A DNA stretch of 62,354 nucleotides from a virus (taxonomy: Duplodnaviria; Heunggongvirae; Uroviricota; Caudoviricetes): the IMG/VR virus record IMGVR_UViG_2880412407_000008; one strand, given 5' to 3'. This document shows, one piece after another, positions 13,465 to 16,400 of the stretch (positions within the stretch are counted from its first letter, which is position 1; each line of letters begins with the position of its first letter). Made by a program: the position numbers.

Positions 13465-16400
13465 CAATAAAATCCTCTTTAAAGGAAATTACTGAGACTG
13501 TAGAAATGAAGAGTAAAGTTTGGGGGAGGCTGAAAAAGATAATCACTTTCTTTAAAAAGTGATTTATGTTTTCTGTAAAAAAGCCCGTAGGTTTCAACTG
13601 CGGGCTGAATTTTCCCTTGATGCTGGTTTTGTCTTTTATCTAAAAAATGCCAGTCTTCACGTTGCTTGTTCCAGCATTAAAGATGTATGTGCTGACTTTT
13701 TCGCCTTTGAAAGAAACTGTCAGAGATTTAGTTTGTGAGTCTGCTCCACCTGCAAGCAGTCCCACAACGGGGATGAAAGAGGTTGCTTTGGACTGGCTGT
13801 TATACATAGTGTATGACCATTGCTCTTTGATCTTACCCAGCAATAGTGGACACGCGGCTAAGTGAGTAAACTCTCAGTCAGAGGTGACTCACATGACAAA
13901 AACAGTATCAACCAGTAAAAAACCCCGTAAACAGCATTCGCCTGAATTTCGCAGTGAAGCCCTGTGAACCGCCCCGGGTTTCCTGGAGAGTGTTTTATCT
14001 GTGAACTCAGGCTGCCAGATCATTGTTTCCGATGGAAGCATAATAAGCTTTTTCTGCTTCTGCCGGAGGAGTATGGCCCAGCCTTCCCAGCAATCGTCGA
14101 TTGTTATACCAGTCCACCCACGTTAGTGTGGCCAGTTCCACTTCTGCACGGTTTTTCCAGCGCTTACGGTGTATTACCTCCGCTTTGTAAAGGCCATTGA
14201 TGCTCTCCGCCATCGCGTTGTCATACGAGTCACCAGTACTCCCTGTTGATGCCAGTAAGCCGGCTTCCTTAAGCCGCTGCGTGTAGGCCAGCGATACATA
14301 CTGAGAACCTTTATCACTGTGGTGGATTGTGCCGGACGGCCGACGGGCCCACAACGCCTGCTCCAGTGCATCCAGCACGAATGCCGTTTCCATGGATGAT
14401 GAGACCCGCCATCCCACGATGTATCCGGCGAACACATCAATGATGAACGCCACATAAACGAAGCCCTGCCATGTGCTTACCCAGGTAAAATCAGCCACCC
14501 ACAACTGGTCTGGACGTTCTGCCACGAACTGACGGTTTACGCGGTCGCCTGCGGCAACGGCTTTCCGGCTGACGGTAGTGCGGACCTTTTTACCCCGGAG
14601 AACACCGGTAAGTCCCATAACTGCCATGAGACGTGCCACAGTGCATCTGGCCACTCTGATACCTTCCCGTAACAACTGACGCCAGACTTTACGCACACCG
14701 TATACCTGGTGATTTTCATCGTATACGCGCTGTATCTCTCTCTTCAGCCAGTCATCGTGCTGCGCACGGGCACTGCGTTTATCCGGATGATGTCGCTGTT
14801 GCTGACAATGGTAATACGTTGACGGGGCAATATGCAGTTCGCTGCATACCGGTCCGACCCCGTACTGCTCACGCAGCTTATCCAGCAGTGGCATCATTTT
14901 TTCCAGAGGCGGTCGAACTCCGCCTTCGCAAAATAAGCGGAAGCCTGGCGAAGGATATCGTTACTGCGGCGCAGTTCACGATTTTCACGTTCCAGCTCTT
15001 TCAGACGCTGACGTTCAGCGCTGGTGAGCCCACCATCACCGCCCCCGGTATCCCGCTCATGCTGGCGAACCCAGACACGCAGAGTCTCCGGCGTACAGCC
15101 AATCTTTGGGGCAATGGAACAAATTGCCGCCCACTGTGAGTCATATTCATCCTGACTTTCCAGAACCATACGAATCGCCCGCTGACGGACTTCGGGGGAA
15201 AAACGAGTATTTTTAGTCATCCTGTTTACCTCTTTCTCAGGGAGTTTAGTCTCCAGGATTTCCGGGGCGGTTCAAACCGTTTGCGCAAAAACAAGCGTGG
15301 AGCACACATCCAAGCTTAGCGCGCACGGGGGAGGTGAAGGGCTTGTATGTCCCAGAATTATGTTCAGACAGAGATGCCATCTAGGTACTGCCAGGCAGAC
15401 GAAGAGTGGATTCAGCAGCAGTTACAGGGGCTGCCTCCGTCACTGAGACGGAAGGTCGCCCTGAAATATGCGGAGGTATACGAAATCACTTTTGACGCTG
15501 AGCCTGTTTCATTCCGCAAGGAGAACAGAGCAAGGCGCGAAGCAAACACAAGGCTCCGCTTGTTTGTGAGAAATCAGGGCAGGGCTTTACAGGGGTATAC
15601 AACTCAGCCGCCCCTGGCAGGAATGCAATCGCGCTCCTGATTGTTTCGGGTTTGAAGGTACCCGAACAGAAGCAGGCTTAAAGGTGCCTGTTCAGGTTGG
15701 CAACCAACTGACCCAATTCCTCATATGTACTAGGTAAGTAGTACGTTTTTATGGGGAAGAGGGAAAGGGGGGTAAGGGGGGATTGGGTGTAGGGGCAGGA
15801 ATAGGGTCTTTTCCAACAGGAGAGATCCATTGGTTAAGTAGATCACTGTCTTAAGGGCGCAATTTAAAAAAAACGCTCGTATCAGCAAGGTAGTACAAAG
15901 CGCCCAGGCGTTGAGAAACGAAAAGGGTTCTTCTTGGAAGAGTGATTTTTCAGAAGAGCTGAATCAGAAGGGGGGCTGGCAGCCTTTGGGGAGGCCACCA
16001 GCCATGTGAGGGGGAATCCATGAAAACCACATCACGAAATTATTATCTCATCAGCACGGGAGCAGCACAATGGAGCTGACGATCACGCCGAATTTTGCAC
16101 AGGAACGAGCGCTAAACATGTTGCGCCGTGATTGGAAGGCAAACGACACCTTCATGGTGTATTCGCCAACCGGTAGCGGTAAAACGGGTTTGGCTGCCTT
16201 CATCGTTGCCGGGTTTGTCAGCCGTGGTATGCGCGTCCTGTTCTGTGCACCGTACACCATCCTGATCGGTCAGACGGCTAATCGGTTCGTGGAGTATGGA
16301 TTACCGGGGGATGAAATCGGTTATATCTGGGCGGATCACCCGAACTACGATCCGAACCGGAAAATTCAGATTGCCAGCGCTGACACGCTTATTCGTCGTG

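Follow-up and report, generated by a model that had tools for sequence, protein, structure and literature searches.

A probable IS629-anchored deletion that fused two tandem ssrA elements in Escherichia coli O121:H19

Introduction

Among the closest described systems to the locus analysed here is Sp17 of E. coli O157:H7 Sakai, which has been described as two tandem prophages (Sp17a and Sp17b) that are negative for int and xis and show neither excision nor packaging (PMC2669165). Sp17 occupies the same ypjA-to-ssrA interval as the O121 locus, and in both strains the recombinase-bearing left half of an island runs to a bamE-like gene and is followed by an IS fragment and then by a lambdoid remnant without int, xis or immunity, in which T3SS effectors and dinI adjoin ssrA. 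The junction of Sp17 is, however, made by a partial IS30 rather than by IS3 and IS629 and lies approximately 170 bp further along the island. Its phage remnant begins in the nin region and has lost the head genes and most of the tail genes, and its island is a different variant with no megablast match to O121 over window positions 4847-11389. As both the junction and the island differ, the O157 and O121 fusions are therefore independent events.

IS629 (IS1203) is a 1310-bp element with TG...CA termini, 25-nt repeats, orfA, orfB and an ALIL pseudoknot, and the O121 copy shares all of these features but is without a 3-bp duplication. IS629- and IEE-associated genomic deletions in EHEC have reportedly been described by Kusumoto and colleagues in 2011 and by Ooka and colleagues in 2009. 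The O121 locus resembles IEE-positive STEC, in which IS3-family elements delete flanking DNA and prophages decay, but differs from IEE-associated deletions in that its IS629 is fully kept, with the joint at the exact terminus. Strains of O121:H19 carry IEE together with multiple copies of IS629 (PMC9397093).

Two further genomes bear on the locus. The intact ssrA lambdoid prophage of O26:H11 strain 11368 has the same attR flank (99.5% identity over 645 bp) and the same tandem arrangement with an island bearing a P4-type integrase, but its early region is of another mosaic type (ymfK/ymfT/Rha-type), and the neighbouring island is another element, also degraded. Strain A16, from an otter, has a complete ypjA-ssrA island that is 98.5% identical to the O121 remnant up to the IS3 insertion point, but there the island runs on to ssrA and no lambdoid prophage is present. 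Here we describe the ypjA-ssrA region of E. coli O121:H19 in a window of 62,354 nt, this being the whole stretch of DNA that was analysed.

Results

The left part of the window, from approximately 3300 to 13827 on the plus strand, is the left-half remnant of an ssrA-type integrative mobilizable island. Its genes encode a DUF6387 protein, an HTH protein, two tyrosine recombinases (5110-6393 and 6616-7749), a third operon product, from a gene into which IS600 has inserted, and a Pro-Glu repeat protein, with Pfam matches to Phage_integrase for the recombinases and to DUF6387. The conserved left module of these islands, from DUF6387 through HTH, the two recombinases and a DNA-binding protein to a bamE-like gene, is present. 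Positions 4998-13827 are 98.4-98.5% identical to A16 and colinear with it except for IS600, and the colinearity ends exactly at 13827. In A16 the island extends a further 14.9 kb past this point, up to ssrA, through a hypothetical gene, a relaxase, Hxs genes, a nuclease and UvrD helicase and finally a P4-type integrase. This relaxase, cargo and integrase half is kept in A16, GmM066, NWU_4 and BA22372, and tblastn found neither the relaxase, nor the cargo module, nor the target-adjacent integrase in the window. The two recombinases of 5110-7749 were considered as a prophage integrase and rejected as such, as the same operon occurs phage-free in these four strains and lies on the strand opposite to the integrase of intact prophage relatives.

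Colinearity with A16 ends inside the bamE-like gene, of which the 3' part (13640..13827, minus strand, 62 codons and stop) remains and which is cut by an IS3 insertion. The minus-strand ORF fragment at 13640-13843 that the earlier note had seen abutting the IS3 end consists of the last 62 codons of the gene for a 100-aa BamE-domain lipoprotein, its apparent TTG start falling within the IS3 end. The gene is uninterrupted in O157, A16 and GmM066. A tblastn search with the A16 protein matched residues 39-100 at 98% identity in the window, from which the 5' part of the gene is absent, and the aligned sequence of O157 strain 2149 departs from that of the window at 13827/13828. The following 137 nt (13828..13964, plus strand), correctly taken beforehand for the left end of IS3, are identical at 137 of 137 positions to nt 1-137 of the complete 1258-bp IS3 of strain A19, comprising the left inverted repeat and the first 24 codons of orfA. 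Beyond this stub the window has no IS3 sequence, and the full-length 1258-bp element, with its two ends and its transposase, is not present.

The stub is followed by a complete IS629/IS1203 element of 1310 bp (13965..15274, transposase on the minus strand) with exact TG...CA termini and terminal inverted repeats of 25 nt, complementary at 22 of 25 positions. It aligns without gaps over 1310 bp to the annotated IS629 of O157 Sakai (NC_002695) at 96.3% identity, and so reaches the 95% nucleotide identity from which ISfinder counts a sequence as an isoform of the reference, in agreement with the earlier description of a complete IS629-like element. Both orfA (14894..15220, minus strand, 108 aa) and orfB, the DDE transposase part (14007..14897, minus strand, 296 aa), match NCBIfam transpos_IS3, the former with its N-terminal part and the latter at 311.7 bits. 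An ALIL pseudoknot (14823..14939, minus strand; Rfam RF01497, 121.5 bits, E = 1.5e-32) lies at the orfA/orfB overlap; such pseudoknots stimulate programmed -1 frameshifting in IS3-family elements.

The flanks of IS629 read ...GCCCTG on the left and AACCGT... on the right, and the element has no 3- or 4-bp target duplication (CTG versus AAC; CCTG versus AACC), as had been remarked of the triplets; shifting the element boundaries yields no such repeat either. IS600 elsewhere in the window (8647..9910, minus strand, 1264 bp, annotated in an identical O121 genome) has a clean 3-bp duplication, CTC, and as such serves as an internal control for simple insertion. In contrast to the O121 locus, the IS629-like element nested in IS3 in strain 102651 is flanked by a 3-bp duplication, and IS3 resumes beyond it. 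The missing duplication marks a secondary rearrangement, the outcome to be expected had a deletion followed the insertion, and the assignment of the element to IS629 stands regardless.

Both junctions are contiguous, base for base, in eight independently assembled complete O121:H19 genomes, and among 5426 complete E. coli genomes the IS3(137)::IS629 and IS629::cro junctions are confined to these eight. A simple nested insertion with a misread duplication, or an assembly error at a repeated IS, is an explanation to which only the general difficulty of assembling IS-rich regions lends anything; given the concordance of eight assemblies across both junctions, a far flank that is phage cro and not IS3, and the lack of a repeat at any boundary, it is barely credible. 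Matches at 41% coverage that appeared to place a nested IS3 and IS629 pair at the same position in many genomes were rejected, as they were adjacent IS copies or other IS3 insertion positions. Metagenome contigs contained no exact match to the window's junction or to the hypothetical reciprocal one; as the real junction was itself unmatched, this negative is powerless.

To the right of IS629, a left-truncated lambdoid prophage extends over 15275..61321 on the plus strand, from the tail of cro to the 3' end of ssrA, by the annotation of an identical O121 genome. Its order is cro tail, replication, Q, lysis, head, tail, the effector genes nleL, espN and espK, a dinI-like gene and the ssrA 3' end, and RefSeq annotation, Pfam and phage relatives agree on colinear replication, Q antiterminator, lysis, terminase, head and tail modules of lambdoid type. 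The right-hand breakpoint lies in a cro-like gene, whose 3' remnant (15275..15384, plus strand) comprises about 35 codons and a stop. From 15275 onward the window aligns, in a reading frame that we checked, to the end of a Cro/CI-family gene in the STEC308 prophage and in KC-Dl-1, and tblastn with cro queries matched residues 57-93 and 71-95. The far flank is therefore not IS3, as the earlier note had said, but the prophage does not start with replication genes, as it had also said, since the cro remnant comes first.

The first intact prophage ORF (15347..15640, plus strand, 97 aa) adjoins cro in relatives, stands in the cII position and has no match in Pfam or NCBIfam. The replication module (16070..18698, plus strand) consists of an SF2 helicase (16070-17728) and a zinc-ribbon/Toprim primase (17730-18698), with Pfam matches to ResIII, Helicase_C, Zn_Ribbon_Prim and Toprim_3, and is 97% identical to phage phi467 and 86% identical to Fels-1. 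Left of the breakpoint, relatives that share this module carry int, xis, early-left genes, cI and cro, and the arm that is missing here measures about 6-8 kb in them. Searches of the window by tblastn with the relatives' proteins found no homologues of int, xis or cI, the cro tail being the sole match, and int and xis are also absent from the annotation, consistent with the earlier claim that the prophage has no integrase or excisionase of its own. No immunity region with a cI-type repressor, intact cro and pR/pL is present, as the last 35 or so codons of cro are what remains of it. No sigma-70-like site emerged when 13400-16200 was scanned for promoters, although this is a weak test of expression.

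The tmRNA gene ssrA lies at 61295-61657, and its 3' end contains a 25-nt att core, CGGGTTCAACTCCCGCCAGCTCCAC (61297..61321, minus strand), in the sole copy of the window; no second core is found with up to five mismatches allowed. As the core is single, neither the island nor the prophage has a partner att site in the window, and two att sites with int and xis, such as would define a complete prophage, are not found. In the intact ssrA prophage of O26 11368, a second copy of the core lies beyond the integrase end, one gene further. Other candidates for an ssrA 3' repeat in the window were rejected as chance matches of 12-13 nt to sequence downstream of ssrA. One of these, a 13-mer inside ypjA, recurs in A16 and O157.

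An exchange that retained the missing DNA would have left a trace elsewhere. The reciprocal junction, joining the IS629 right end to IS3 from nt 135 onward, is found in none of the 5426 genomes, the eight of O121 among them, and the STEC308-type cI and cro 5' region is absent from the O121 genomes, although the ancestral immunity allele could differ from that of STEC308. As both are absent, the DNA has been lost rather than relocated. This largely refutes, and makes very improbable, the alternative that distant IS629 copies recombined without loss, so that the left arm of the prophage and the remainder of IS3 were inverted or translocated elsewhere in the O121 chromosome. Such a history would accord with the large inter-prophage inversions reported in O121:H19 (PMC8767318) and with the many IS629 copies per genome (PMC9397093), but any such exchange would preserve the reciprocal junction; in addition, the window does not contain the 5' part of the bamE-like gene, and the island right flank is found at only one place per genome.

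Discussion

We propose, with a probability of roughly 0.88, that a single IS629-anchored deletion, in an ancestor of these O121:H19 strains, left the IS3 stub and IS629 pair as its scar. The IS-mediated loss of the prophage left end that the earlier note had suspected is supported by the start of the prophage in the tail of cro, by the missing int, xis and cI, and by the absent reciprocal junction. Alignment of both flanks to relatives, which that note had suggested, gave colinearity with A16 up to 13827 on the left and the end of cro on the right, in relatives of which int, xis, cI and cro precede the breakpoint. The extent of the deletion had been underestimated, however, as the right half of the neighbouring ssrA island (about 14.9 kb in A16) was removed together with the prophage left end. 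Against this model, Nishida et al. (PMC8767318) list ssrA among the prophage sites confined to a single strain of the nine in L1, which is difficult to reconcile with the eight RefSeq genomes.

In the ancestral arrangement, ypjA would have been followed by an integrative mobilizable island with a terminal P4-type integrase and a displaced ssrA 3' repeat forming an internal att, and then by the int, xis, early genes, cI, cro, replication, Q, lysis, head, tail and effector genes of a lambdoid prophage, and by ssrA. This predicted tandem layout is seen in O26 11368, where prophage int, one gene, the 25-nt ssrA repeat and a P4-type integrase follow one another. IS3 would first have entered the bamE-like gene of the island, as seen at the left junction, and IS629 would then have entered IS3 after nt 137, as seen in the junction sequence. 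The third step, from the IS629 right end to about 35 codons before the end of cro, is a loss evident in the sequence, by a route that we infer. It would have taken the remaining 1.1 kb of IS3, the island right half, the internal att, int, xis, the early-left operon, cI and most of cro; on the assumption that the ancestor's island was like that of A16, the island half would have amounted to about 15 kb and included the relaxase, cargo genes and integrase, but the island could already have been shorter before the deletion. The ancestral order and the extent of the loss are a reconstruction based on A16, O26, STEC308 and KC-Dl-1 rather than observed in the O121 lineage, and no pre-deletion relative was found among the genomes searched.

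Because the terminus of IS629 is kept to the base, the event used IS629 itself. If cro contained another IS629 in the same orientation, the two copies may have recombined by a RecA-dependent route; alternatively, a one-ended event assisted by transposase or IEE may have occurred. In the latter, a 'sloppy' strand transfer from the IS629 end into cro, possibly resolved by IEE, would have produced the same deletion with a single IS629. This route is a tentative but serious candidate. It would leave the exact IS629 terminus that is observed, O121:H19 encodes the IEE that it may require (PMC9397093), and IEE with an IS3-family transposase deletes IS-flanking DNA (PMC9397093; bioRxiv 10.1101/2023.06.07.543989). 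Copy-out-paste-in transposition is, however, not expected to remove donor DNA without an extra resolution step (bioRxiv 10.1101/2023.06.07.543989), and reported IEE events mostly remove the IS or join at microhomologies, whereas here IS629 is complete and no microhomology is seen at the joint (IS end ...TTCA, phage ...CAAG|AACC). As IS3-family elements move by copy-out-paste-in, we slightly favour recombination between two IS629 copies, but the two routes have left no distinguishing mark and are indistinguishable, and the involvement of IEE is neither shown nor excluded. As such, of the 'adjacent deletion' first suggested, the deletion stands, and the adjacent route is one of these two.

It is also conceivable, if distinctly improbable, that the prophage left arm was never at this locus, and that the segment from IS629 to ssrA was already truncated when homologous recombination brought it in, replacing an older Sp17-like remnant. 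IS629 and the ssrA flank would have been the recombination anchors in such an import. Lambdoid prophages at ssrA are mosaic (with a joint near 19594 here), the 645 bp nearest attR have 99.5% identity in O26, O103 and O111 strains, and O157 holds an independent remnant at the same place, all of which would accord with import. An IS629-anchored truncation would still be needed, however, and merely be shifted to another host, and no donor is visible, the replication region being at least 99% identical within O121 genomes only.

With an IS629-anchored deletion as the preferred reading, the resemblance between O121:H19 and O157:H7 may be considered further. These are unrelated STEC lineages with different island variants and lambdoid prophages, in tandem at ssrA in both, and the island-side breakpoints made by IS3/IS629 in O121 and by IS30 in O157 are about 170 bp apart at the bamE-like gene. 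Such fusions may be non-random, with selection for losing the internal segment, although we consider this unlikely. Both integrases, the shared att, the relaxase and the phage immunity switch lie in that segment, and its loss would lock in the T3SS-effector cargo and leave the island recombinase operon in place. By chance, two breakpoints on a 24-kb island would fall within 170 bp of each other in roughly 1-2% of cases.

The locus is a textbook case of IS-driven prophage decay in STEC, an event of an already known kind, and Sp17a/b of O157 Sakai is a parallel case. Its reading is corrected here from a single element to two tandem ssrA elements fused by deletion. Found among 5426 genomes only in the eight of O121:H19, the two junctions could be used as typing markers specific to this lineage. 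Neither the island nor the prophage would be able to excise by site-specific recombination, and the prophage would be without a repressor/Cro switch or pR. Loss of the internal segment, including int and att, would therefore have fixed the effector cargo of nleL, espN and espK in the chromosome, and the deletion would explain the stability of the effector-bearing prophage and its adjoining island in O121:H19.

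Structure and distribution of the IS3-IS629 junction

The earlier note had described an IS629-like element nested in an IS3 stub, lacking a target duplication and with a far flank that is not IS3, and all of this was confirmed. The stub (13828-13964) matches the first 137 nt of complete IS3 from strain A19 at 137/137 positions, and no further IS3 sequence occurs elsewhere in the window. It adjoins a 1310-bp element on the minus strand (13965-15274), which is bounded by 25-nt inverted repeats and matches the IS629 of O157 Sakai at 96.3% identity in an ungapped alignment. Its orfA and orfB both match NCBIfam transpos_IS3, and an ALIL frameshift pseudoknot (121.5 bits) lies at the orfA/orfB overlap. 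The element is preceded by GCCCTG and followed by AACCGT; the flanking triplets are thus CTG and AAC, and no 3- or 4-bp repeat arises under any shift of the boundaries. Two simple insertions serve as controls. Within the window, IS600 at 8647-9910 bears the duplication CTC, and in strain 102651 (NZ_CP189662.1, 1298377-1300852) an IS629-like element inserted in complete IS3 at nt 157-159 has a 3-bp duplication, with IS3 resuming on its far side.

The 5' part of IS3 has been hit repeatedly by IS629-type elements: at nt 137 in O121, at nt 157-159 in strain 102651 in the same relative orientation and, as judged from the spacing of matched pieces, at about nt 240 on several virulence plasmids and about nt 360-370 on chromosomes of the IAI39 type. 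The heptamer TGAACGC at IS3 nt 146-152 is similar to the end of IS629 (TGAACCGC), and this recurrence could reflect either end-like targeting or the mere abundance of both elements. Between espN and espK, in the effector region (58402-58645), there is also a degenerate IS3-family fragment with 72-76% identity to parts of IS629.

The window extends from ypjA to smpB in the annotation of one O121 genome and therefore covers the ssrA (tmRNA) integration hotspot, with ssrA at 61295-61657 on the minus strand (ARAGORN). Full-length megablast matches to 13000-16500 were present at 99-100% identity in 8 of 5426 complete E. coli genomes, all O121:H19 or O121 STEC. The junction of IS3 nt 137 with IS629 is contiguous in these eight O121 genomes only; it is real, as eight independent assemblies agree, and on sequence comparison it is lineage-specific. 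Nishida et al. (2021) reported that the ssrA prophage site was specific to one of nine L1 O121:H19 strains (PMC8767318). Unlike in that account, the prophage was present in 8/8 complete O121 genomes of our RefSeq collection; the occurrence of the fused structure within O121:H19 is established for these eight genomes.

The left flank is half of a mobilizable island

The short minus-strand ORF that the earlier note saw beside the IS3 end (13640-13843) proved to be the C-terminal 62 codons of a bamE-like gene, which encodes a 100-aa BamE-domain lipoprotein, its apparent start codon lying inside the IS3 end. O157 strain 2149 is identical up to 13827 and then runs on through the remainder of this gene. 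The closest relative on this side is otter strain A16, colinear with 4998-13827 at 98.4-98.5% identity except for the IS600 insertion, and this colinearity stops exactly at 13827. In A16 a single island of ~24 kb fills the ypjA-ssrA interval. It carries, in order, DUF6387 and HTH genes, a pair of tyrosine recombinases, a DNA-binding protein, the bamE-like gene and one hypothetical gene; then come a relaxase, Hxs genes, a nuclease and UvrD helicase pair and, directly adjoining ssrA, a P4-type integrase. GmM066, NWU_4 and BA22372 have related islands at other sites, again with a relaxase and with defence-type cargo. From these comparisons the mobilizable integrative island in the window is reduced to its left half, and as measured on A16, 14.9 kb is missing between 13827 and ssrA.

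The A16 segment absent from O121 (22183-36737 of the A16 locus) carries the relaxase, an HxsDBCA radical-SAM system and an ATP-dependent nuclease and UvrD-helicase pair that looks defence-like; BA22372 has an Eco57I-type RM gene and Kiwa (kwaAB) at the equivalent position. In the retained half, two tyrosine-recombinase genes and one for a DNA-binding protein form an operon (5110-8665 and 9885-10895, with DUF6387 and HTH genes upstream) that is conserved in islands at ssrA, tRNA-Thr and other sites; each of those islands has a separate site-specific integrase too. Relative to A16, the third gene of the operon, for the DNA-binding protein, is split by the 1264-bp IS600, present as two tandem copies in one O121 genome, GTVSS-020. 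A perfect (GCCAGA) x 32.7 hexamer array (13271-13466), inside an ORF at 12249-13562, codes for an extended Pro-Glu repeat within a protein of the island; the length of the locus is variable across the eight O121 genomes and also across those of O157, and so the array behaves as a VNTR.

The right flank is a prophage without its left arm

From 15275 the window matches the final ~35 codons of a Cro/CI-family gene in the Stx2e prophage of STEC308, and from 15305 also the KC-Dl-1 prophage. The breakpoint lies within cro, of which tblastn found only the tail in the window, and the prophage does not begin directly with replication genes, as the earlier note had it. Its replication module shares 97% identity with phage phi467 and 86% with Fels-1. 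The missing int, xis and immunity region was found in related genomes, where the earlier note proposed to look for it: in STEC308 and KC-Dl-1, int, xis, early-left genes, a cI-type repressor and cro precede the same ORF and helicase-primase module, this int-to-cro stretch measuring ~5.9 kb and ~7.7 kb, respectively. The O121 annotation of the prophage includes no integrase or excisionase, as the earlier note had observed, and the window gave no tblastn match to lambdoid or P4-type integrases, to xis, to cI proteins or to the relaxase of the island. No partner att site, which would have spoken against a deletion, was found either, the 25-nt ssrA att core occurring once in the window with up to 5 mismatches allowed. 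A consensus scan of 13400-16200, a weak test, returned no promoter-like site.

Further along, genes for Q, lysis, terminase, head, tail, sodC, lom and tail fibres are annotated in O121, followed by nleL, espN, espK, a dinI-like pseudogene and ssrA. The annotation shows additional defects in the prophage: the portal gene is frameshifted, the dnaB-like and HNH genes are partial, and the terB and dinI-like genes contain stops. A mosaic joint at ~19594 separates the phi467/Fels-1-type helicase-primase module on its left from a replicative-helicase gene 3' end and Q on its right, the latter resembling Stx1a phages and phiP27; the helicase gene at the joint is annotated as a replicative DNA helicase missing its N-terminus. 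In the head-gene region, near the portal gene, 35529-36121 holds ~3.6 tandem copies of a 162-bp unit with 90-93% mutual identity.

Possible mechanisms of the deletion

An intact prophage occupies ssrA in O26:H11 11368, which shares the 645 bp adjoining ssrA with O121 at 99.5% identity. Its integrase lies at the ssrA-distal end; beyond it, a DUF4760 gene is followed by a perfect 25-nt repeat of the ssrA 3' end and then by a P4-type integrase that belongs to a neighbouring island remnant. By analogy, the O121 ancestor is predicted to have had this tandem layout. IS3 inserted into the bamE-like gene and IS629 into IS3 after nt 137, two steps that can be read directly from the sequence. The right neighbour of IS629 is now phage cro. 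The terminus of IS629 is preserved to the last base, which argues that the IS itself took part, because random illegitimate deletion would rarely stop exactly there.

Deletion of the prophage left end by an IS is supported, but the adjacent deletion proposed in the earlier note is not the only possible route. The event could have been recombination with a second same-orientation IS629 inside cro, or a one-ended transposase-dependent event, possibly resolved with the IS-excision enhancer IEE. In O121:H19, IEE is present together with about ten copies of IS629 (PMC9397093), and deletion of IS-flanking DNA by IEE acting with IS3-family transposases has been reported (PMC9397093; bioRxiv 10.1101/2023.06.07.543989). 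As copy-out-paste-in transposition alone does not delete donor DNA (bioRxiv 10.1101/2023.06.07.543989), and no microhomology was seen at the IS629/cro joint, we slightly favour homologous recombination over the transposase/IEE route; both would give the same product. The deletion also took half of the neighbouring island and, on the predicted tandem order, the internal att site.

Exchange of any kind between IS629 copies would preserve a reciprocal junction, in which the IS629 right end is joined to IS3 nt 135 onward. A 245-nt query for this junction gave no contiguous high-identity match in the 5426 genomes, the STEC308-type cI/cro 5' region was found in eight genomes of the collection, none of them O121, and the island right flank occupies one place per genome. 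The missing DNA is therefore gone rather than relocated.

Parallel with O157 and consequences

Sp17 of O157 Sakai occupies the same ypjA-ssrA interval and has the same composite nature: the left half of the island as far as the bamE-like gene, then a partial IS30, then a lambdoid remnant that begins in the nin region and has effectors and dinI adjoining ssrA. In a re-evaluation by Asadulghani et al., Sp17 is resolved into two tandem prophages, Sp17a and Sp17b, and scored int-negative and xis-negative, with no excision or packaging detected (PMC2669165). The O121 island is 98.5% identical to that of A16, whereas against Sakai there is no megablast match over 4847-11389; as both the island variants and the insertion sequences differ, the O157 and O121 truncations are independent. 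Their island truncation points lie ~170 bp apart, which in two cases may be coincidence, an IS hotspot or selection, and to selection we give low probability. Within O157 the same junction keeps eroding: Sakai keeps 804 bp of IS30 and the nin-Q-lysis genes, and in O157:H7 strain 2149 (12677-15700 of its own locus) IS30 is reduced to 64 nt, followed by two tandem IS629 copies, with the phage remnant gone up to a tail-fibre fragment.

Prophage decay driven by IS elements in STEC is already well documented. In O121, island and prophage would both be left without an integrase and without the att site that separated them, and the prophage would also have lost cI, a functional cro, and pR/pL. The prophage should consequently be incapable of excision and of induction as a unit, which would fix its effector genes in the chromosome.
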